A DNA stretch of 46,785 nucleotides from a phage. The notes beneath the pieces are model-generated. The model had not been told where the DNA came from. It searched no databases and saw nothing but the letters and a program-made list of their open reading frames with translations. The DNA lies in NCBI GenBank assembly GCA_029337695.3, contig GCA_029337695.3_4851.1. One strand, 5' to 3'. Position numbers and translations under genes: made by a program. Below, piece by piece: positions 739 to 33,048 of the stretch (its first letter is position 1; every line of letters begins with the position of its first letter).

Positions 739-1136
739 TGCCAGCAAAATTAAGAGGTGTCAGGCAGGCCGTAGAGAGAACTTCGCAAATTGTGGATGAA
801 ATAATCGCCACGAAAGCTGTGCGTGCTCTGAAGTCAGCGACATACATCATCCGCACTGAGTCAGCCACGTTGACGCCGATTGATACATCGACGCTGATTA
901 ACAGTCAGTTTGATACTGTGGAAGTTAGCGGAACTCGAATCACTGGCAAGGTTGGCTATTCTGCAAAATATGCGCTGTACGTCCACAATGCCAGCGGTAA
1001 ACTTTCAGGTAAGCCGCGCAGCAATGGTAACGGCACGTATTGGTCGCCGAATGCTGAACCTAGATTCTTAACAAAGGCTGCCGATAAAACTCGCAGCCTC
1101 GTTGATTCAGTGATAAAAAAAGAAATGAATATTTAG
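738..1136 (+). CDS. putative neck/tail component (HK97 gp10-like)
   Basis: 132-aa ORF whose start overlaps the upstream stop; synteny with head-tail joining genes. Confidence 0.4.
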   Translation: MPAKLRGVRQAVERTSQIVDEIIATKAVRALKSATYIIRTESATLTPIDTSTLINSQFDTVEVSGTRITGKVGYSAKYALYVHNASGKLSGKPRSNGNGTYWSPNAEPRFLTKAADKTRSLVDSVIKKEMNI

Positions 1137-1624
1137 CCGTGGTTTGCGAACTCCAAAAACAGTTCATCTACTTTTTTGCAATAGGCTTTATGGGCGGCTT
1201 CTTTGTCTGAAAACCTACCAAGATGATAGCTTTTCCCATGCATCTTTACCGTGGCTCTCCATTTTCCCGTGTACTTGCAAAAATGAACTCCTTTATATCC
1301 AGGCGTGTTTGATTTAGATATCTTTGTGTTCCTTGCGTTCTCGCAGTCACTGGCCTCCCTCAGATTTGAAATTCTATTGTCATCACGAATATTGTTTATG
1401 TGATCAATTTCATGCTCAGGGACATATCCATAATGGATAAACCAAGCCACTCGGTGCGCCCTTAATCTTTTCTTCCCAAGCGTTATGTATCCTGCGTCGT
1501 TGTGATAATTTGCAATATCACCTTTTGATATTTTCCCGCAACTTACAGCCCAGGTGAACAATCCGGTAATATGGTCGTATTTAACTCTTGACGCGATTGC
1601 TATGTAATCCCGCTCTGAAATCAT
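1133..1624 (-). CDS. HNH homing endonuclease with AP2 DNA-binding domain
   Basis: HNH motif HEIDHINNIRDDNRISNL plus C-terminal AP2-like YKGVHFCKYTGKWRATVKMHGKSYHLGRFSDKEAAHKAY; opposite strand to the flanking structural genes. Confidence 0.8.
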   Translation of the reverse strand: MISERDYIAIASRVKYDHITGLFTWAVSCGKISKGDIANYHNDAGYITLGKKRLRAHRVAWFIHYGYVPEHEIDHINNIRDDNRISNLREASDCENARNTKISKSNTPGYKGVHFCKYTGKWRATVKMHGKSYHLGRFSDKEAAHKAYCKKVDELFLEFANHG

Positions 1625-4912: not shown

Positions 4913-7289
4913 TGGCTGAAGAAGTCGGCGGAATTGTCTATGAAGTCGGGATGGATGTTAAAGGCCTGAAAGCTGGCGCGACAACAGCCAATAAGACTTT
5001 AGATGACCTTGAATCATCAACCAACAAAACCACAAGCGCCCTTGGCAAGCTGGATAAAAACGCCAGAAATGCTGGCAGCGGAATGAAAAATGCTGGCGGC
5101 GCAGCTTCAGGGCTAAAAACCAGCCTGTCGATGCTGGCTGGCGCAATATCCGTGTCACTGATTATCGAATGGGGAAAGCGATTCCTTGAGGTTGCAGATA
5201 ACATGACGCAGCTTCAGGCAAGGATTGCTCGCCTGTCAACTGACGCAAAAACCGCGAACGAAACATTCAGCTCACTGGCAAATATCGCCTCAACCACTGG
5301 CGCAAGTCTCAGCGACACCACGAAGCTGTGGGAAACATTGACGTCATCACTGAAAGAGGCTGGCGCGACAAATGCGCAGATTCTTAACCTTACAGATACC
5401 CTGCAAAAAATAGGTCGAATTGGCGGGTCATCAACCGAAGAAATGGCGAATGCATTACGTCAGTTCGGTCAGTCAATAGCATCTGGCACAATCCGCGCAG
5501 AAGAGTTCAACTCCATCCTTGAGCAGATGCCTGAACTTGCACGCCAGATAGCCGCTGGGCTTGGCATTTCAATGGGTGAACTTCGGGCCAGAATGCTTGA
5601 CGGAAAATTGACGGCAGAAGATGCACTAAATGCCATTCAGGACAGGACAAGCGTCGTTAATGCTGAGTTCGCAAAGCTACCGCGCTCTATATCTCAGGCG
5701 ACTGGCAGTCTTGAAACATCATTTGCAAAAATGATAGCAAGCATAAACGAAGCAACTGGAGCCAGTTCTACCTTTGTTTCAGTTATTGACTCTATTACCT
5801 CAGCAATCAACAGGCTAACTGGTCAGACCATAGGTGCGGCAGAGGTTATTTCTGATTTGACGTCAACTGCCGAAATGTTCAGTCGCAGAGCGAGAACTTG
5901 GTCATGGGTCGGCATTGACGGATGGGCGGCACAAAATCAGGCAATAGCGGCGGTAGCAAATCAGGCTGCAACTTTGGTATCAGACATGGATGCTGTCACC
6001 AAATCGACAGGGGAGGCAGCAAAGGCGCAAGCGCACTTGACAGTGCCAAAAGCAGCAGAGAAAGAGAAAAAGAAAAAAGCAACAGGCAAAAGCGCCGAAG
6101 AACGACAGGCTGAGTCAGTTGCTGAAAAGCTGGAGAAATTACGCCAGCAAACCATGCTCAATGCCACATCTACCAGCGAACTATCCCGCGAGCAAGCAAT
6201 TCTCAACGCGCAGCAATCGCTTGGCAAAGCTGCCACTCAGGAGCAAATAAAACTTGCTGGCGAGTACGCTGCGAAGATTTGGGACCAGAAGAATGCACTG
6301 AAGGAGCAGGCAGAAGCGGAGAAGGAAAAGCAGCGCATAGAAAAATCATATCAGGGGTTGCGCGCTATTGCGTCACCAACGACTGGCATTGACAGTGAAT
6401 ACCAGCAACGCATGGCTGACCTTGATGCCTACGCCGCAGCATATCCGCAGAAAATTACGGAGATTGAGCAGACTCGCGCAGCAATTGAAGCACAATACCG
6501 CCAGCAGCGAATGGACGCCATGTGGGCTGAGTGGCAGCAACAAAGCCTAGGTGCGCAACTGTTCGGTACCGCTCTTGATTCAGCAATGAGTACGGCATCA
6601 AACAGCATCACCGGATTGCTGACAGGCACAATGAGCGTTCAGGATGCCATGCGCAGTCTCGGCTCTACGGTGCTGAACTCTCTGGTAAACAGTTTCGTCG
6701 AGATGGGCGTGCAGTGGGTAAAATCTGCCGTTATGGGACAGACTGCACAGGTTGCGGCTACGGCAACCACAACGGCTGCGCAAACGGCAGGGCTGGCAAC
6801 AACAACAGCAGCATCGACGGCGGCAGCAGCCACCACCACGGCGGCATGGACTCCAGCGGCAATCGTGGCATCAATCGGTTCATTCGGTGGTGCGGCCGCA
6901 ATTGGTGTAGGCGCTGTTCTCGGGGCGCTGGCAATGGGTGTCGCTGGAAAGCGAAAAAATGGCGGCTCAGTTAGTGCCGGAAGTATGTACGAAGTTGGCG
7001 AGGGAAACGCACCAGAAATATTCCAGGCCAGCACAGGCAGGCAATATATGATACCTGGCAATTCAGGTAAGGTTATCAGCAACAAAGACATTACCGGAAG
7101 TGGCAGTGGCTTGATTATAAATAATAATGTTTATAATAGTTCAAGCGGAGCAACAGCAACTACCAGCGCCAGAGATAATGGTGACGGCAGCGTGACAATT
7201 GAGACGATTGTGAGTGATATTTCGGAAAATGGCCCAATAGGGCAAGCCATTTCAAGAAACTACAATACCAACAGGAGAGCAACCGAATA

Positions 7290-7290: not shown

Positions 7291-11091
<3,801 letters not shown>

Positions 11092-11130: not shown

Positions 11131-12966
11131 ATGGCTACCATACCAACCAATAAACCAATTCCGTCAGAAGACCCGCGCGACCTGAAATTTAACGCCGGTA
11201 AAATTGACGAAGTTGTCAACTCTGATGCACACTACTACACCGACCGCTTCGGGGTGCGCAGATGGACGATTGCAGGATTTCAGTATACGGCAGAAGAAGC
11301 TATCCGTAATTATGGCTACATCACAATGGACAGTTTTGAAGATGGAGCGACACTGACGCTTCCCAATCAGACACTGCGTTATGAAGCAAATGGAGAATAT
11401 TATCGCTGGGATGGTGTGTTCCCGAAGGTTGTTCCAGCCGATTCCACTCCAGGAACAACTGGAGGAATTGGAAGTGGTGCGTGGGTAAGTGTGGGTGATG
11501 CGGCATTAAGAACACAGCTAAATACATTGGGATTAAATTCCTCTCTCGGCTCGAATGGAAATGCTATCTGGGGAAAGGGAGCGTTCGTTAGTAACAGTTA
11601 TGCAAAAAATAATGCCTTTTTCGGTGTTGATGCTGGTTCCTCAATAACCGGAAGCTCATCTGACGAAGCCATCGGAGCCGAGAATACGGGGTTGGGCCGC
11701 CGCGCTGGCGTTAACCTAACGTCTGGGCAGCGCAATGTACTGGTTGGTCATGAAGCGGGCGCATTGCTAACCACAGGTAGCTATAACGTTTATATTTATG
11801 CGCAAAGCTCTTCTTATGCCAATTATAAGACCGGTAGCTATAACGTAGTAATTGGATATAACGCAGGAAAGCTCCTTACATCTGGCGATCGCAACGTATC
11901 AGTGGGTACGGACGCAGGTTCGGCTACGACGACTGGTCGTGACAACGTCGCCGTAGGGCATGCTGCAATGCAAAACAACTCATCGGGTGGCGGAAATACT
12001 TATCTTGGCGCATTCGCAGGAACTGAAACTGGCTCTGGCGGAAACAACCTTGCGGCAGGTCGATCTGCTTTATTCCGTAATACTGACGGCGCTGGCAACG
12101 TTGCGTTAGGACGAGAGGCTGCATTAGGTGTATCGGGTACAGGTGCCTCTCCAAATAATATTGTTGCCATTGGTTATCAGGCTGGCTGGTCGCAGAACGG
12201 GTTAAATGGTGTTGTATTTTGCGGCATGCAGTCTGGCTATAAAGCAACAGTAATGAACGATACCGTGCTGCTCGGCAGGGCGTCAGGCTTTAATCTTACA
12301 ACTGGCAGTAATAACGTGTTTGTAGGCGCAGCAACGGGCGACAGCGAAACGACAGGCAGTCAGCTTGTTTATCTCGGCCACCAGTCGGGGCGATTCCTTA
12401 TAGACGGAACACCCGCCACGGGGAAATTAAACTGTGTATCCATTGGATATCAATCCCGTGTTGGTGGTAACCATGAAGTACAACTGGGCAACTCATCACA
12501 AACAGTTTACGTATATGGAACCGTACAGACTCGCTCTGATGAGCGAGACAAGGCAGACAAGCGAGAAATTGACGCTAATCTCGCTGTTTCTTTTGTTCGC
12601 GGAATTACGCCATATTTATATAAATGGGATTATCGTGACGATTATATTGAAGAATATGATGTAAAAGTCGGAGACGATGAAAATGGCAATCCTGTTTATG
12701 AAACCAGAGTTCGACATCTCGATAAGGATGGAAGCAAAAAAAGAACGCGTGACCACGCAGGATTCCTGGCTCAGCAGGTAAAAGAATTACTGGACCGACT
12801 TGGAATTGACTGCGGTATATATCAGGACCATTTAGTTAACGATGGTTGTGATGTGAAGACCCTTGCCTATGAGCAGGCGATACCTTTCATCACAAAAGCT
12901 ATGGACGTTGCTTTTTCTCGCCTCGACAACATTGAAGAACGACTTGGGAAACTTGAGAATCAATAA
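11131..12966 (+). CDS. tail fibre with C-terminal S74 intramolecular chaperone (autoproteolytic) domain
   Basis: 611 aa; central Gly/Ala-rich beta-helix-like repeats; C-terminal TRSDERDKADKREID has the Ser...Lys dyad spacing of peptidase S74 chaperone domains. Confidence 0.8.
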   Translation: MATIPTNKPIPSEDPRDLKFNAGKIDEVVNSDAHYYTDRFGVRRWTIAGFQYTAEEAIRNYGYITMDSFEDGATLTLPNQTLRYEANGEYYRWDGVFPKVVPADSTPGTTGGIGSGAWVSVGDAALRTQLNTLGLNSSLGSNGNAIWGKGAFVSNSYAKNNAFFGVDAGSSITGSSSDEAIGAENTGLGRRAGVNLTSGQRNVLVGHEAGALLTTGSYNVYIYAQSSSYANYKTGSYNVVIGYNAGKLLTSGDRNVSVGTDAGSATTTGRDNVAVGHAAMQNNSSGGGNTYLGAFAGTETGSGGNNLAAGRSALFRNTDGAGNVALGREAALGVSGTGASPNNIVAIGYQAGWSQNGLNGVVFCGMQSGYKATVMNDTVLLGRASGFNLTTGSNNVFVGAATGDSETTGSQLVYLGHQSGRFLIDGTPATGKLNCVSIGYQSRVGGNHEVQLGNSSQTVYVYGTVQTRSDERDKADKREIDANLAVSFVRGITPYLYKWDYRDDYIEEYDVKVGDDENGNPVYETRVRHLDKDGSKKRTRDHAGFLAQQVKELLDRLGIDCGIYQDHLVNDGCDVKTLAYEQAIPFITKAMDVAFSRLDNIEERLGKLENQ

Positions 12967-14084: not shown

Positions 14085-14594
14085 TCAGAAGGGAATATCG
14101 TCTTCGAAGTCCATCGGCGGCTCATTTACTCCTTGTGTGCTTTGCTGTTTTGGTGGCTGCTGCTGTTGTTGATTTGTTACACATCCGCCTTGAGGTTGTT
14201 GGCCTGATTGCTGGCGTGGTTGTTGCTGACCAGAATCATCACGCTTACCACCAAGCATCTGCATGACTCCGCCCATCTGTGGGATAACAATCTCAGTGGT
14301 ATATCTGTCTACGCCGTTGCTGTCAGTCCACTTACGAGTGCGTAGCTGGCCTTCTATATAAACCTGAGAACCTTTGCGAAGGTATTCTCCTGCAACTTCC
14401 GCAAGTTTCCCGAATATTACCACGCGATGCCATTCAGTCTGTTCTTTCTTTTCTCCTGTTTGCTTGTCTTTCCACTGCTCAGATGTTGCAACAGAAAGGT
14501 TGGCAATTGAAGAGCCTGATGCTGAATATTTAACTTCAGGGTCGTTACCAACTCGACCAAGGATTATGCACTTATTAATACCAATCGAAGACAT
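14085..14594 (-). CDS. ssb: single-stranded DNA-binding protein
   Basis: OB-fold-like N-terminus, Gln/Pro/Gly-rich linker and acidic C-terminal tail ending DDIPF. Confidence 0.85.
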
Positions 14595-15112
14595 TACTTG
14601 AATCTCCCGTTTTTATCTCTTAATCTGCCATTATGATTCTCTGTGGCGTGTAATGATGCGTGCTCTGACTTCGTCATAAGCATTAGGTTACTTGGATGGT
14701 TGTTTGTTTTATCATGGTCTATATGATGAACGCATTCATTGTGAAACAACCTCCTCCCAATAATGCCTTCCATAACTACGACATGCTCTCCTCTTCCTTT
14801 GTTTTCACCCATAGTTATCTCGACATAACCATTCGGTTTTACAGAGCGACCCTTGCCAACTCCTTTCTTTGATTTTGATATATTTTGCTTCCATTCTTCA
14901 GTAAACTTTCGTTTTTTACCCCTAAGTCCTGAACCAAGTCTTCCCTCTGCGGCAGCAATTCTTATTGCATCTCCTCTGCTTCTCAATATTCCGGCTTTCT
15001 TAAATCTAAACCTCAATGTTGACATGGCTATTCCTGTTTCATTGGAGATTTGAGGGATGCTCATGCCAGACAAATACATATCAAACTCATTCATATGCAC
15101 CTCCTTGTGCAA
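14594..15112 (-). CDS. HNH homing endonuclease with N-terminal HTH
   Basis: C-terminal [27 protein letters not shown]; inserted between ssb and erf. Confidence 0.75.
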
Positions 15113-15174: not shown

Positions 15175-15834
15175 TCAAAATCCTTCAATTGGAGTTGGTT
15201 TATGTTCTGGTTTTTCTTCCTGCGGTTCTGGCTGCTGTGGTTGCGGTTTAGCCAGTTTGGCAGGGTTGAATGATTCGCCTGATACCATGAATTTAGCCTT
15301 CATCTCCTGATAAGCGCCAACAATAACGCGAGTTGCTGCATCATCACCACGAAATGCCTTGTATTCTTCGCCATAGATTGAAGCTAATTCTTCCATGCTG
15401 GATGCGTTGCGAATCAATGCAACTGCGTCTTTTGGTGATTTGCGAGCGGCATTACCGTCATCATCAGCCTGAGCAATACCAAACATTGCCGCGATGGAAT
15501 ATCTGCGTGCATACGTCATTGCGGAGCCATACCCCTGCGCATCCTTCTTAGCTACTGGCATTGGCATCACTGATGACATGTACTCGCCAGATTCATGCAT
15601 TATCGTTGTTTCAAGTTTAAGCACATCCATTGAATCACCATCAATGGCATTCTGGATGATTATAAGACCGTTAGCCTCAAGCGCTGGACGTATTGCATCA
15701 AGGAATGACTCAAGGTTTGCGTAATTGCTTTTCAGGTGTGGGTTTTTGGCGTTTTTCTTTGCACCACTACTCATCACCTTGCGAGCCTCAACCAGAGCCT
15801 TAATCAGGTTAGCTTTCTGTTCAGAGAAAATCAT
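15175..15834 (-). CDS. erf: Erf-family single-strand annealing protein
   Basis: 219 aa in a recombination module next to SSB and exonuclease; Pro/Gln-rich C-terminal tail. Confidence 0.6.
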   Translation of the reverse strand: MIFSEQKANLIKALVEARKVMSSGAKKNAKNPHLKSNYANLESFLDAIRPALEANGLIIIQNAIDGDSMDVLKLETTIMHESGEYMSSVMPMPVAKKDAQGYGSAMTYARRYSIAAMFGIAQADDDGNAARKSPKDAVALIRNASSMEELASIYGEEYKAFRGDDAATRVIVGAYQEMKAKFMVSGESFNPAKLAKPQPQQPEPQEEKPEHKPTPIEGF

Positions 15835-20223: not shown

Positions 20224-20252
20224 AAGAAACCCTCCAATCGGAGGGTTTTGTT
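20224..20252. terminator. bidirectional rho-independent terminator
   Basis: AAACCCTCC-aatc-GGAGGGTTT hairpin with T-run between convergent genes. Confidence 0.75.
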
Positions 20253-20667
20253 ATTCCTTGAACTCTGGCGCTTCAGGCCAGAAGGCTATATTTCGCAGCG
20301 ACTTACCTGTGTGATTGCACCAGTATATTCCTGAGTCATCATACTTGGCAGTAACCTTGACGCGATCAGCATCAATAATAACAACCTCCTGTCCATCTTT
20401 AGGATCGAAAAGACGCGCATCTTTCCAGTTAGCAATCTCATTAAGGGAAAGAAGGACATAACCAGGAAGATAAGCGCCGACATCAGCGATGTGAACTATA
20501 GTTCTCTCTGTTCTCTCTCCTGTGTAGTCTCCATTCCACTCATAAAGAATGATCGCGTCTCCAATCTTAAAGTCACGGTCATTCTTTCTTAGTTCCGCCT
20601 TCTTGTGTCCGGTAACTACAGGCCAGAAGTGTTCAGGTAATATTTTAAGTTCGTGTGTTTTGCTCAT
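20251..20667 (-). CDS. DUF3850 (ASCH/PUA-like) domain protein
   Basis: N-terminus THELKILPEHFWPVVTGHKKAELRKNDRDFKIGD matches the DUF3850 signature; coupled to the upstream 530-aa gene. Confidence 0.6.
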   Translation of the reverse strand: MSKTHELKILPEHFWPVVTGHKKAELRKNDRDFKIGDAIILYEWNGDYTGERTERTIVHIADVGAYLPGYVLLSLNEIANWKDARLFDPKDGQEVVIIDADRVKVTAKYDDSGIYWCNHTGKSLRNIAFWPEAPEFKE

Positions 20668-28706: not shown

Positions 28707-28936
28707 TGGATAACTGCGAAACGCCGATTCAATACCTTGAAGAATTGTCTCTTTGCGATACTATGGCAAGGAAAATAATAACCTTGTTTAAGCAAGGAAT
28801 TGTCACTGAACAGGAAGCCATCTTGATTTACATGAAAGGGCAAAATGAAATTACAGAACATTACAAGGGTGAGCTATTATCTATCATGCAAAGACAAACG
28901 CAACCGATGATTGCAATGCCATCACGGAGAGAATAA
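28703..28936 (+). CDS. hypothetical protein
   Basis: 77-aa ORF, last of the series, followed by a terminator. Confidence 0.4.
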   Translation: MMDNCETPIQYLEELSLCDTMARKIITLFKQGIVTEQEAILIYMKGQNEITEHYKGELLSIMQRQTQPMIAMPSRRE

Positions 28937-28970
28937 GCCATCAACCATAGCCACTGCAAGCTCGTGTTAT

Positions 28971-29000
28971 AATCCCATCCAACGTGATGGGATTTTTTAT
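28971..29000 (+). terminator. rho-independent terminator
   Basis: AATCCCATC-caacgt-GATGGGATT followed by TTTTTAT. Confidence 0.75.
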
Positions 29001-29006
29001 TGGTGA

Positions 29007-30431
<1,425 letters not shown>

Positions 30432-30525
30432 TATAATAACAAATGCAGCTAGTCCGGCCAGATGAAAAGGTGAACGTAGACACCCTGCTGCATCCTCAAT
30501 CTACGAACCTACTACGGGGTTACTC

Positions 30526-31425
30526 ATGGCAAAAAGACTCACCACGGAAGAATTCATTTCTCGCGCCAGACAAAAACATGGCGACAAGTACATTTATCAT
30601 AAATGTGAATACGTCAACGCAAAAACAAAAATCGTCATAACATGCAAAGAGCATGGCGACTTCACGCAATCACCAAGCGACCACCTGCAAGGAAAGGGAT
30701 GTAAGAGGTGTGCAGATATCTCAGGGTGGGATAAGAGAAAGATAACAACCTCCGAATTTGTCTTGAAGGCAAACGCGATACACTCCAACAAGTACACATA
30801 TGAAAAGGCCAAGTATAAGCAAGGTCATTTAAAGGTGTGCATAACATGCAGAAGGCATGGTGATTTTTATCAATCACCAAGTAGTCATTTAAGGGGCTTT
30901 GGTTGTCCATCGTGCAAGTTTGAATTAAATGCAGAAAGATGCAGAATGACAAAATCAGAGTTCATATCAAGGTCAAAGGAACTGCACGGTGACTCATATG
31001 ACTACTCAATGGTGGAGTATAAAAACAATAACACCAAAGTTGCTATATTGTGCAAGGAGCACGGATTGTTCATGATGTCACCTGGCAATCATCTTGCTGG
31101 CAAGGGATGCAGTGGGTGTGCAAAGTACGGATTTGATTATAAAAGGGAGGGGTTTGTATATTTCCTTATGGGCGATGGTGTAATAAAAGTTGGCATAACA
31201 AATGACATAAGACAAAGAATTGCAAGATTATCAAGGAGGACACCTTTTGAATTTTCCTTGATTGCAAAAATAAAAACAACCGGGGAAGAAGCTGCGGCGA
31301 TTGAAAAGTATTATCATAACAAATATGAATCAGCCGGTCTTTATGGTTTTGATGGTGCAACAGAGTGGTTGAAATATTCGACAGAACTTATGAATGAGAT
31401 CATGAATGAAAATACTCCGGTTTAA
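30526..31425 (+). CDS. T5orf172 (GIY-YIG-like) domain endonuclease with three N-terminal zinc-ribbon repeats
   Basis: Three roughly 45-aa repeats of ...HG(D)...Y...C..HG.F.QSP..HL.G.GC..C, then a C-terminal GFVYFLMGDGVIKVGITNDIRQRIARL...GATEWLK T5orf172-type domain. Confidence 0.65.
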   Translation: MAKRLTTEEFISRARQKHGDKYIYHKCEYVNAKTKIVITCKEHGDFTQSPSDHLQGKGCKRCADISGWDKRKITTSEFVLKANAIHSNKYTYEKAKYKQGHLKVCITCRRHGDFYQSPSSHLRGFGCPSCKFELNAERCRMTKSEFISRSKELHGDSYDYSMVEYKNNNTKVAILCKEHGLFMMSPGNHLAGKGCSGCAKYGFDYKREGFVYFLMGDGVIKVGITNDIRQRIARLSRRTPFEFSLIAKIKTTGEEAAAIEKYYHNKYESAGLYGFDGATEWLKYSTELMNEIMNENTPV

Positions 31426-32356
31426 CGCAAGGCTACCCCAACCGCGCATATCGCAGAGCCTGACCGACCCGTTAGGTGCTGCGGCTCGCCTGTCGAAGAT
31501 GGATAAGGTGATAACGCACAAATATAAGCAACTCAGGACTAGTGCTCTTGAGTTGTTTCGCACCATTCCTGGTAGTCAGACCAATGCAGAATCAAGCGGC
31601 CTGTATTTCTACGATTTCAGTAGTGCACGAGCTGCTACTTTCATGGATGAGTTGCAGGAGCTGATTGACGAGATTCTGCTTGAAGGCGACGATTTCGGTC
31701 ACAGCAGGATGTGGGCTAACGTGTTCATCGGTGATGCGTATCAGGCCGGAACGCAGAAGGCAAATTCAGAGCTATCAAGTCTGTCTCCGGTTTATTCTGA
31801 GCAGAGGTCAATTGCCGCAATACTCTACAGTGAGCCTTACCTGAATCGGCTGCAACTTGCTTATACACAAGGCTATTCAGACTGGCGCGGACTGAGTGAT
31901 TACTCCCGGCAGCAACTGACGTCTGTCATTATGGAAGGTATTGCTCGTGGCGATAATCCTCGCAATGTTGAAGCTGATATCGTTAAGCGCGTTGATGTGT
32001 CTCACAGTTACGCGAAACAGATAGCGCAGACTGAAATCACCGGGACGCTGCGACAGGCAAACAGGCGGGAAGTCATTGAGGCGCGCGAAGAATTGGGCGT
32101 TGAGACGGTGATGCTGTGGCAATCGGCACTGATGAAATCAACGAGGGCTTGGCATGCGTCACGGCATGGCAAGTTCTATACGCCGGAAGAGATTGACACG
32201 TTCTATAGCGAAGTAGCGAACCGCAGGAATTGCCACTGCGCACAAACCCCGGCATTACTAATGGATGGCAAGCCAGTCATTCTTGAATCGTCGCAGGAGA
32301 GACTAGATAAGCAGCGAGAGTCATGGCAATCAGCCAACAAAAAGCCCTCTAAGTGA
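31406..32356 (+). CDS. head morphogenesis protein (Mu F / SPP1 gp7-like)
   Basis: 316-aa ORF after the portal; C-terminal ...WHASRHGKFYTP...NCHC motif typical of this family. True start may be an internal Met. Confidence 0.55.
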   Translation: MKILRFNARLPQPRISQSLTDPLGAAARLSKMDKVITHKYKQLRTSALELFRTIPGSQTNAESSGLYFYDFSSARAATFMDELQELIDEILLEGDDFGHSRMWANVFIGDAYQAGTQKANSELSSLSPVYSEQRSIAAILYSEPYLNRLQLAYTQGYSDWRGLSDYSRQQLTSVIMEGIARGDNPRNVEADIVKRVDVSHSYAKQIAQTEITGTLRQANRREVIEAREELGVETVMLWQSALMKSTRAWHASRHGKFYTPEEIDTFYSEVANRRNCHCAQTPALLMDGKPVILESSQERLDKQRESWQSANKKPSK

Positions 32357-32370
32357 GGGCTTTGATTTAT
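32341..32370. terminator. bidirectional rho-independent terminator
   Basis: AGCCCTC-taagt-GAGGGCT hairpin with T-rich tail between convergent genes. Confidence 0.7.
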
Positions 32371-32439
32371 CTCATCAGCATGCACAGAACAAATATTATT
32401 ATCGCATAGCACAATATCTCTACGACGCTGAATATTGTT

Positions 32440-33048
32440 TTAATCATCAAGTTTCACGCCGGGAATCTTGCCTGCCGCAATGGCTTCATAAATTAGCTTA
32501 GCCTCATCCTCGCGCTTGTAATCTTGCGCTACCATTTCTAATACCGCGCAGATAGATTCAAGTACAGCCTCATGCTTCCTTTCTGCTTCTGTGCGAAATG
32601 GGATGAAAACATCCTTATTGGATGGGGTTATTGCGTAGTAAATTTCACCAGATGGTCTGATAACTATTTTTTCGCCATCAAGACCAATAACCTTGACTTT
32701 TCCCCATGACGTTCCGTTGCTGATATACTCACATTCACACCCAACTGGCGGGACTCCTTCGCCGTTCCATGCTGGCTTTTGCGATGCTGCGAGCGATGCT
32801 TTGTATTGCCAATAGGTTACTATCGACTCCTTGTGGTCGGAAGATAATGGCGTAGCCCATTTTTCTCCATACCAGAAATGCATAAGGCTATTTCCTGTGT
32901 GATGTTCCCATGAGAACCCCTCATAGTGTGGGTCATTTGTGTCCCATGCGCACAGCGAACCGTCATTATCTTGGGTGATTGATAGTGCACCCTCAGGCCA
33001 CCCACCACGCTTAGGCAATTCTTGAACTAACAGGTCGATAAGTTTCAT
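32440..33048 (-). CDS. hypothetical protein
   Basis: 202-aa ORF, Trp-rich N-terminal half. Confidence 0.45.
   Translation of the reverse strand: MKLIDLLVQELPKRGGWPEGALSITQDNDGSLCAWDTNDPHYEGFSWEHHTGNSLMHFWYGEKWATPLSSDHKESIVTYWQYKASLAASQKPAWNGEGVPPVGCECEYISNGTSWGKVKVIGLDGEKIVIRPSGEIYYAITPSNKDVFIPFRTEAERKHEAVLESICAVLEMVAQDYKREDEAKLIYEAIAAGKIPGVKLDD

Follow-up and report, generated by a model that had tools for sequence, protein, structure and literature searches.

The gene at positions 30526-31425 on the plus strand of phage contig GCA_029337695.3_4851.1 (assembly GCA_029337695.3; the whole stretch of 46,785 nucleotides (nt) was analysed and is called the window below) is best explained as a free-standing homing endonuclease gene (HEG) of the T5orf172 class that lies inside a cassette of about 1.02 kb, a reading to which we assign a probability of roughly 0.75. 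The open reading frame (ORF) starts with ATG and encodes 299 amino acids (aa), as given by the ORF list and the raw sequence. According to this explanation the cassette would interrupt portal in its 3' end, where the stop of portal and the start of the head-morphogenesis gene overlap in relatives that are free of the endonuclease, and would bring with it a replacement portal tail with its stop, an overlapping extended -10 promoter, a leader RNA of the int-alpA type and the ORF itself. Three treble-clef fingers would read an extended DNA site and the C-terminal GIY-YIG-type domain would cut nearby, while the P3 loop of the leader would have two alternative pairing partners, a decoy and a stretch that abuts the Shine-Dalgarno sequence. 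When such a phage infects a cell together with a relative free of the endonuclease, the enzyme is expected to cleave the relative's uninterrupted portal/head-morphogenesis junction or DNA close to it, and recombinational repair after the cut would copy the cassette into that relative. We infer cleavage, this target and homing for the window endonuclease.

Allelic states of the portal/head-morphogenesis junction

The window phage is Skatevirus-like (9NA-related) and of Salmonella type. The first-pass annotation had placed the gene at a site where portal and head-morphogenesis genes normally abut, and comparison with relatives bears this out: SB28 has an empty allele, in which portal and head morphogenesis share 20 nt and no further gene intervenes, and LPSTLL, Sf11, Bas81 and Vi II-E1 show the same overlap. 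The uninterrupted junction is also found in Segz_1, KFS-SE2 and many other natural phages, at least 25 under different names, and in its endonuclease-free form (SB28, LPSTLL or Bas81) contains GGTTACATGGAAGACACACCACAGGAAGATGAAAATGAAGATACTCCGGTTTAACGC. Occupied junctions occur in Skate, LPST49, BS5, Seszw_1, NX263, PHA46_2 and VLCpiS13c, so that relatives do not uniformly carry a gene at this position, and the window allele (at least 90% protein identity) is present in only five of the 166 phage records that match portal and head morphogenesis.

Alignment with endonuclease-free relatives, proposed earlier as the way to define the insertion site, gives sharp borders at 30383/30384 and at the ATG of the head-morphogenesis gene (31406). 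Homology to the SB28 empty allele ends after the portal residues ...YMED (30383) and returns at 31406, which places the cassette at about 30384-31405. Between the borders lie a different portal tail of 15 codons with its stop, a 94-nt spacer and the endonuclease ORF. The last 16 codons of portal (30384-30431, stop included) are specific to the endonuclease-bearing allele, the tail of SB28 reading TPQEDENEDTPV before its stop; when the substitute tail was compared with the empty-allele tail, following the idea of a target duplication, p was about 0.02 in global and about 0.07 in local alignment against shuffles. The insertion leaves both flanking genes functional, as the portal frame stays open with the substitute tail and the start of the head-morphogenesis gene is kept together with the 20-nt overlap. 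At the downstream border the endonuclease stop overlaps the head-morphogenesis gene, as had been noticed at first sight of the sequence, and falls 20 nt within it (31406-31425). This retained overlap reads ATGAA(A/G)ATACTCCGGTTTAA, and the endonuclease uses the stop codon that ends portal in the empty allele, in the same frame. Since the ORF reads into the retained overlap and shares its stop, the overlap is inherited from the target and not made by the endonuclease, which now holds the former place of portal upstream of the head-morphogenesis start. The target-derived codons of the endonuclease are TPV and the stop only. The view that its C-terminus NENTPV is as a whole a portal remnant was rejected, as the ...ELMNEIMNE helix is intrinsic to the T5orf172 subfamily elsewhere; because ...SxELMNEIMNE is conserved at other loci, this helix is the endonuclease's own.

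The same site is also occupied by other endonucleases. BS5, Seszw_1 and NX263 carry here a paralogue of the same architecture with 42% aa identity. BS5 and Seszw_1 match the window at about 94% identity in the portal tail, the leader and the opening 75 nt or so of the ORF, whereas the body of the ORF has about 50% DNA identity, and identity resumes at the head-morphogenesis ATG. Judged by sequence, such a paralogue behind a near-identical front end is allele turnover. Skate is 91.5% identical to the window in DNA from portal through head morphogenesis, and the LPST49 orthologue is 96.3% identical to the window endonuclease in protein. In averages of 100-nt bins the cassette is about 95% identical to that of Skate, as against about 91% for portal and about 88% for the head-morphogenesis gene, and this greater closeness of the cassette than of its flanks may be taken as a sign of recent spread. 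Portal identity to HEG-bearing and HEG-free relatives is similar (90-93%), giving no clear co-conversion tract. Klebsiella phages, in DNA that is 78% identical, have a 51%-identical endonuclease at this site. In CRISPR-made genome-reduced seszw mutants (PMC9825161) the deletion of the paralogue starts within the leader and extends to the head-morphogenesis ATG, and these mutants were isolated and sequenced as phage clones. A gene at the portal/head-morphogenesis site is thus dispensable in the laboratory, a conclusion that pertains to the 42%-identical paralogue only; natural HEG-free relatives are viable as well. Because empty, occupied and paralogue-replaced alleles all exist in sequenced phages, this junction offers a clean natural example for tests of cleavage and homing.

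Protein architecture and family

The N-terminal two thirds of the protein consist of three tandem repeats (aa 1-68, 69-136 and 137-204), which begin alike with TTEEF at 6, TTSEF at 74 and TKSEF at 142. In global alignment the repeat pairs share 25-34 identities per 68 aa, 14-18 standard deviations over shuffles. Three repeats had been recognized in the first-pass annotation, where their period was put at about 45 aa; the number stands, the period is 68 aa, and 45 aa is the length of the conserved core that runs from H-G-D-x-Y through C-x2-C. The CxxHG...GCxxC motif reported for each repeat could be located in full, the zinc ligands being C40/H43/C59/C62, C108/H111/C127/C130 and C176/H179/C195/C198 (C-x2-H-G...G-C-x2-C), and none of the twelve varies among 26 aligned homologues with 39-89% identity. 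This alignment also served as input for an AF2 model with a mean pLDDT of 87 (about 90 inside the repeats) and a pTM of 0.40, which leaves the arrangement of the domains undefined. In the model every repeat consists of a helix followed by a beta-hairpin with C-x2-H in its knuckle; in repeats 1 and 2 a helix starts at C-x2-C, and no helix follows C195/C198 in repeat 3. Ligand pairs in a hairpin knuckle and at a helix N-terminus suggest a treble-clef arrangement, in agreement with the 'probable treble clef' of the Pfam entry DUF4379, and the fold predicted by the model is therefore probably a treble clef and the earlier label 'zinc ribbon' probably wrong. Among the homologues DUF4379 is matched at E<=1e-3 by 26 of 26, DUF723 by 16 and CapR by 4. 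The three tandem fingers would bind DNA.

How well is the C-terminal part assigned to a nuclease family? The T5orf172 (GIY-YIG-like) domain named in the first-pass annotation is recovered by Pfam above the cut-offs, as the last 95 residues match MUG113 with 37.9 bits (2.8e-9; cut-off 22.3) and T5orf172 with 30.3 bits (6e-7; cut-off 20), and the T5orf172 profile is matched by all 26 homologues. Residues Y212, K221, G223, R231, H264 and E280 are invariant in alignments of 26 and of 15 sequences. A profile of the domain compared with the UPF0213 GIY-YIG structures 1ywl and 1zg2 weakly places Y212, K-x-G and R231 on the GIY, YIG and Arg positions, and the domain shows the alpha/beta fold of GIY-YIG enzymes. 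By motif order E280 would be the counterpart of the catalytic glutamates E75 of I-TevI and E180 of Odn. The T5orf172 domain of Odn from phage ICP1 cuts DNA in vitro and the exchange E180A kills this activity (PMC8263062). A sequence-profile search of PDB with the full-length alignment gave no match at E<=1, and no NCBIfam model matches the endonuclease protein.

Relatives of the protein are numerous. A search of a large protein database found 1711, which consist of arrays of about three to seven fingers joined to T5orf172/MUG113 in some and to a Vsr/DUF559-type domain in others; phrog_559 ('HNH endonuclease') has the finger array in common with the window protein. By tblastn in sequenced phages the family occurs in 937 records at 1741 places, with at most eight places listed per genome, and at many different loci, among them sites after the head-morphogenesis gene, near the DNA polymerase and near nrd genes. 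HEGs of the T5orf172 class that bear repeated CapR/DUF723/DUF4379 fingers, change their repeat numbers, shuffle domains and prefer sites by essential structural or replication genes were described by Barth, Dunham and Seed (Barth et al., 2023; PMC10448857), and the window endonuclease is a further member of this architecture. The endonuclease itself therefore adds little to the T5orf172 homing endonucleases already on record, as its architecture was described before; of modest extra interest are the exact anatomy of the insertion in an overlapping gene pair and the shared leader of int-alpA type.

The int-alpA-type leader

Between portal and endonuclease lies a promoter-like site, the portal stop TGA forming part of its TGATATAAT (30429-30437). 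Among 68 distinct upstream sequences taken from other loci, 67 have a TANNNT hexamer at 6-9 nt 5' of the RNA element, and from these sequences an extended -10 promoter would be active ahead of the endonuclease, with a transcription start predicted at about 30441-30445. The RNA element, a leader of 57 nt with three stems, was modelled from copies collected by a pattern scan of IMG/VR, which gave 98 stretches with 55 distinct cores; as the search pattern itself prescribed GCAGCTAG, GAAAAG and CTGCTGC, these carry no weight as evidence of conservation. The copies fold as P1 - UA - P2 - GAAAA - P3 - C - P1', the loop of P3 being AACGUAGA (30473-30480) in the window. In a MAFFT alignment of 38 distinct sequences 90.6% of the cells pair, compared with 70.7% in shuffles and at most 55% with the partners slid, and the covariation score is 0.489, compared with 0.120 in shuffles (0 of 500 reach it) and at most 0.12 with slid partners; the pairs of P2 and P3 are each realized by four to six standard pair types. 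When 61 distinct sequences are aligned on the basis of the model, 95.7% of the cells pair and the covariation is 0.559 versus 0.135 in shuffles (0 of 500). On the window the analysts' own covariance model scores 66.5 bits (E 2e-19), on the plus strand only and in a single copy; neither a second copy in the window nor a leader 5' of either HNH gene was found.

Downstream of the third stem two short direct repeats, R1, about 10 nt past P1', and R2, are complementary to the P3 loop, and R2 abuts a GGGG Shine-Dalgarno-like run (30516-30519) ahead of the AUG at 30526. Among 30 distinct loops two complementary sites of at least 4 nt occur in 90% of cognate versus 22% of non-cognate pairs (permutation 0 of 2000). 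On this complementarity, the leader may exert translational control.

Which known RNA does the leader correspond to? Rfam returned no match for the window copy itself (E<=1 on 1.3 kb; E<=10 on 161 nt). With diverse copies it gave RF02996, int-alpA, and the idea of a new motif was dropped: the Skatevirus-type leaders tested (L070, L088, L066) remain at 26.6-30.9 bits and L055 at 28.2 bits, under the gathering score of 35.8, whereas more distant copies reach 44.3-49.7 bits. The consensus of RF02996 has the same three stems and junctions (P1-UA-P2-GAAAA-P3-C(U)-P1') and a tail complementary to the P3 loop. RF02996 reportedly goes back to the candidate structured RNAs of Weinberg and colleagues from 2017, in whose main text int-alpA goes unmentioned. 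The literature searched reports no function for int-alpA RNA; one genome screen names the motif, without functional data. Other candidates were rejected, namely the HK022 put antiterminator RNA, as put is a V-shaped pair of long stem-loops of about 70 nt without a closing helix, and the hammerhead, pistol, twister-sister and hatchet ribozymes, as their junction sequences differ from those of the leader and Rfam gave no matches.

The leader is not confined to this junction. The next 130 nt or so after the promoter recur at other loci with 84-94% identity: STGO-35-1 and 64795_sal3 have them behind the head-morphogenesis gene, LPSTLL, SB28 and Seszw_1 behind the Rz spanin, and at each of those recurrence loci examined an endonuclease, T5orf172 or HNH, lies downstream. 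A single phage, Seszw_1 (L010), has three copies, which by their positions are one at 5318-5375, about 30 nt 5' of an HNH gene that precedes portal, one at 7353-7409, 5' of the T5orf172 endonuclease at the portal/head-morphogenesis site, and one at 12630-12685, 5' of an HNH gene after the Rz spanin. The copy at 5318-5375 was found by the covariance model outside the pattern and has a different P1 with compensatory changes. From 87 leader copies collected, 69 downstream ORFs could be clustered. The largest cluster, 21 of the 69, consists of T5orf172 endonucleases, the one class for which close relatives gave profile matches; about 29 fall into clusters read by eye as several kinds of HNH endonuclease, 16 encode proteins of about 947 aa that by eye resemble primase-helicases (L024, L074 and 14 similar loci), and two by eye resemble lambda-type metallophosphatases (L087, L094).

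It may be new that int-alpA is tied to homing-endonuclease cassettes and forms a promoter-proximal cis-acting 5' untranslated region (UTR) with a loop-to-Shine-Dalgarno interaction. A tentative proposal, for which the odds seem slightly unfavourable, is that the int-alpA motif is a portable promoter-proximal translational riboregulator, a front end shared by HEG cassettes with nucleases of unrelated families (T5orf172 and several HNH types) and by other genes of mobile elements. It could be imagined that the RNA begins at the transcription start and that its P3 loop pairs alternately with the decoy or with the site adjacent to the Shine-Dalgarno sequence. If true, the leader would hold a nuclease that may be toxic under tight control, and would allow one nuclease body to be exchanged for another while the leader itself stays constant. 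In phage T4, RNA structure is an established means of controlling HEG translation, there by way of simple hairpins (PMC2988022). The leader is the more useful lead of the two, as it ties an orphan Rfam motif to a concrete role open to testing, promoter-proximal translation control of selfish nuclease genes, and as one leader is common to cassettes with unrelated nucleases.

Alternative explanations, neighbouring genes and known systems

A number of observations weigh against the homing endonuclease explanation. The fingers of the window protein score under their Pfam cut-offs (DUF4379 24.1 versus 24.5, CapR 18 versus 24.2, DUF723 13.8 versus 20.9), and the matches of the nuclease domain to the solved GIY-YIG structures are non-significant when taken alone (E 0.11 and 0.63), with E280 outside the aligned part. 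The fold energy of the leader as a single sequence is no better than that of shuffles (z +0.97). The occupied site in the Klebsiella phages would also fit a long vertical residence in place of active homing. In addition, the Skate orthologue (L001 2027-2926) has Arg in place of the fourth ligand of repeat 1 (C62R; CKRR for CKRC in the window), and with the loss of this zinc ligand some copies may be decaying.

This last point leads to the possibility that the gene is a dead or decaying relic, kept for the ribosome-binding context and the start overlap of the head-morphogenesis gene, or that its product is a DNA-binding regulator like CapR. CapR, made of such fingers, represses without a nuclease, in T4, HEGs are kept because signals for downstream genes are embedded in them (PMC2988022), and the 3' end of the endonuclease gene overlaps the head-morphogenesis start. 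We nonetheless regard a relic or regulator as improbable, since the window copy is full length with all twelve zinc ligands and every invariant T5orf172 residue intact, and since the seszw deletions demonstrate that head morphogenesis can be expressed without the body of the endonuclease. The intact catalytic positions of the window copy would equally suit a T5orf172 nuclease co-opted for conflict, which cuts a competing phage, a satellite or a plasmid or excludes the markers of co-infecting relatives. Odn combines the same nuclease domain with a borrowed DNA-binding domain and acts against a satellite by cutting the PLE origin (PMC8263062), and HEG domains have repeatedly been co-opted in conflicts between phages and satellites (Barth et al., 2023; PMC10448857). 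In the window protein, however, the DNA-binding part is a standard finger array of HEGs and not a borrowed replication-initiator domain, presence or absence together with allele replacement at a junction of essential genes is the pattern of a selfish insert, and these phages have no known satellite or target; the odds of co-option appear about as low as those of a relic. Least probable by far is an auxiliary role of the nuclease in packaging DNA or building heads, comparable to that of the HNH proteins that assist terminases. The position of the gene inside the terminase-portal-head module would then be functional, yet most close relatives are without any gene between portal and head morphogenesis, the paralogue can be deleted as in the seszw mutants, and members of the family are found at many unrelated loci.

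The positions of the gene, its parts and its neighbours are collected in the table. The two HNH enzymes that the first-pass annotation had counted were both found again as HNH_3 genes, which confirms three HEG-like genes in this phage.

Features of the window around the endonuclease gene, and the HNH genes
Feature	Position	Strand	Remarks
Portal gene	29010-30431	+	Phage_portal_3 2e-21; phrog_146 2e-94
Promoter-like site ATGATA-17-TATAAT with TG extension	30409-30437	+	best sigma-70-like match in 28900-32600, 10/12 with TG
Three-stem 5' leader of int-alpA (RF02996) architecture, 57 nt	30440-30496	+	own covariance model
Leader P1	30443-30449/30487-30493	+	then junction UA
Leader P2	30452-30454/30461-30463	+	then junction GAAAA
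Leader P3	30469-30472/30481-30484	+	loop sequence in the text
Direct repeats complementary to P3 loop	R1 UCUACG 30500-30505; R2 CUACG 30512-30516	+	
Free-standing homing-endonuclease-like gene, 299 aa	30526-31425	+	
Three 68-aa zinc-finger repeats, C-x2-H-x15-C-x2-C, DUF4379/DUF723/CapR type	30526-31137	+	presumed DNA-recognition array
T5orf172/MUG113 nuclease domain, aa 205-299	31138-31422	+	invariant Y212, K221, G223, R231, E260, H264, E280
Overlap of endonuclease 3' end and head-morphogenesis start, 20 nt	31406-31425	+	retained 3' end of ancestral portal gene
Head morphogenesis (Mu F-like) gene	31406-32356	+	Phage_Mu_F 3.8e-11; phrog_758 1.3e-116
HNH_3 + AP2 gene	1133-1624	-	
HNH_3 gene	14594-15112	-	

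The HNH protein encoded at 1133-1624 is about 40% identical to HNH proteins of Skate that are sited elsewhere, from which it follows that content and positions of HNH genes differ among close relatives. The screen for HNH genes also met an ERF-family recombinase (15175-15834, minus strand) and a DUF3850/ASCH protein (20251-20667, minus strand), both within stretches that have no megablast match to Skate. Around the endonuclease, identity to relatives drops steeply beyond 29000-32500, so portal, endonuclease and head morphogenesis stand as one conserved block with variable regions on either side; terminator-like hairpins lie at 28971-28994, just 5' of portal, and at 32341-32363, just 3' of the head-morphogenesis gene. 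Gene callers often place the start of such endonuclease ORFs within the portal gene and read across the RNA leader, as in P0001 (347 aa), P0002 (338 aa) and Seszw_1 gp61 (L004 1750-2799). As these N-terminal extensions are not conserved as protein they are probably artefacts, and for annotators this means that several upstream-extended calls of such ORFs through the leader are probably wrong.

Among known systems the nearest to the window gene are gp09 of Skate, named 'endonuclease' (YP_010053292), and the LPST49 orthologue, which are the same gene at the same site with the same 20-nt overlap; in these records the name is automatic or given by similarity only, and Skate differs by C62R. With the T5orf172 HEGs of ICP1 and other phages (PMC10448857) the window protein has in common the C-terminal T5orf172 domain and the N-terminal array of CapR/DUF723/DUF4379 fingers, and likewise the free-standing gene beside essential structural genes and the turnover of alleles at one locus. 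Repeat number varies as in the ICP1-type HEGs, the window protein having three fingers and most aligned homologues four. None of the ICP1 genes is close to the window protein, identity being about 25% across part of the protein, and the main text of PMC10448857 makes no mention of a portal/head-morphogenesis overlap as insertion point. The GIY-YIG enzymes I-TevI and T4 seg have the reverse order of domains, the nuclease of the window protein being C-terminal, and the second Tyr of GIY-YIG is replaced by Lys (K-V-G) in the window protein, unlike in those enzymes. DNA binding rests on zinc-finger repeats in the window protein and on NUMOD or helix-turn-helix modules in I-TevI and T4 seg, and the RNA element is a conserved three-stem motif in the former and a simple hairpin over the ribosome-binding site in the latter systems. 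Finally, int-alpA is filed by Rfam under RF02996 as 'Gene; sRNA', whereas the window leader, by its position and by its complementarity to a site beside the Shine-Dalgarno sequence, looks like a cis-acting 5' UTR, and the genes that it precedes are not integrase or alpA but homing endonuclease genes of the T5orf172 class and of several HNH kinds.

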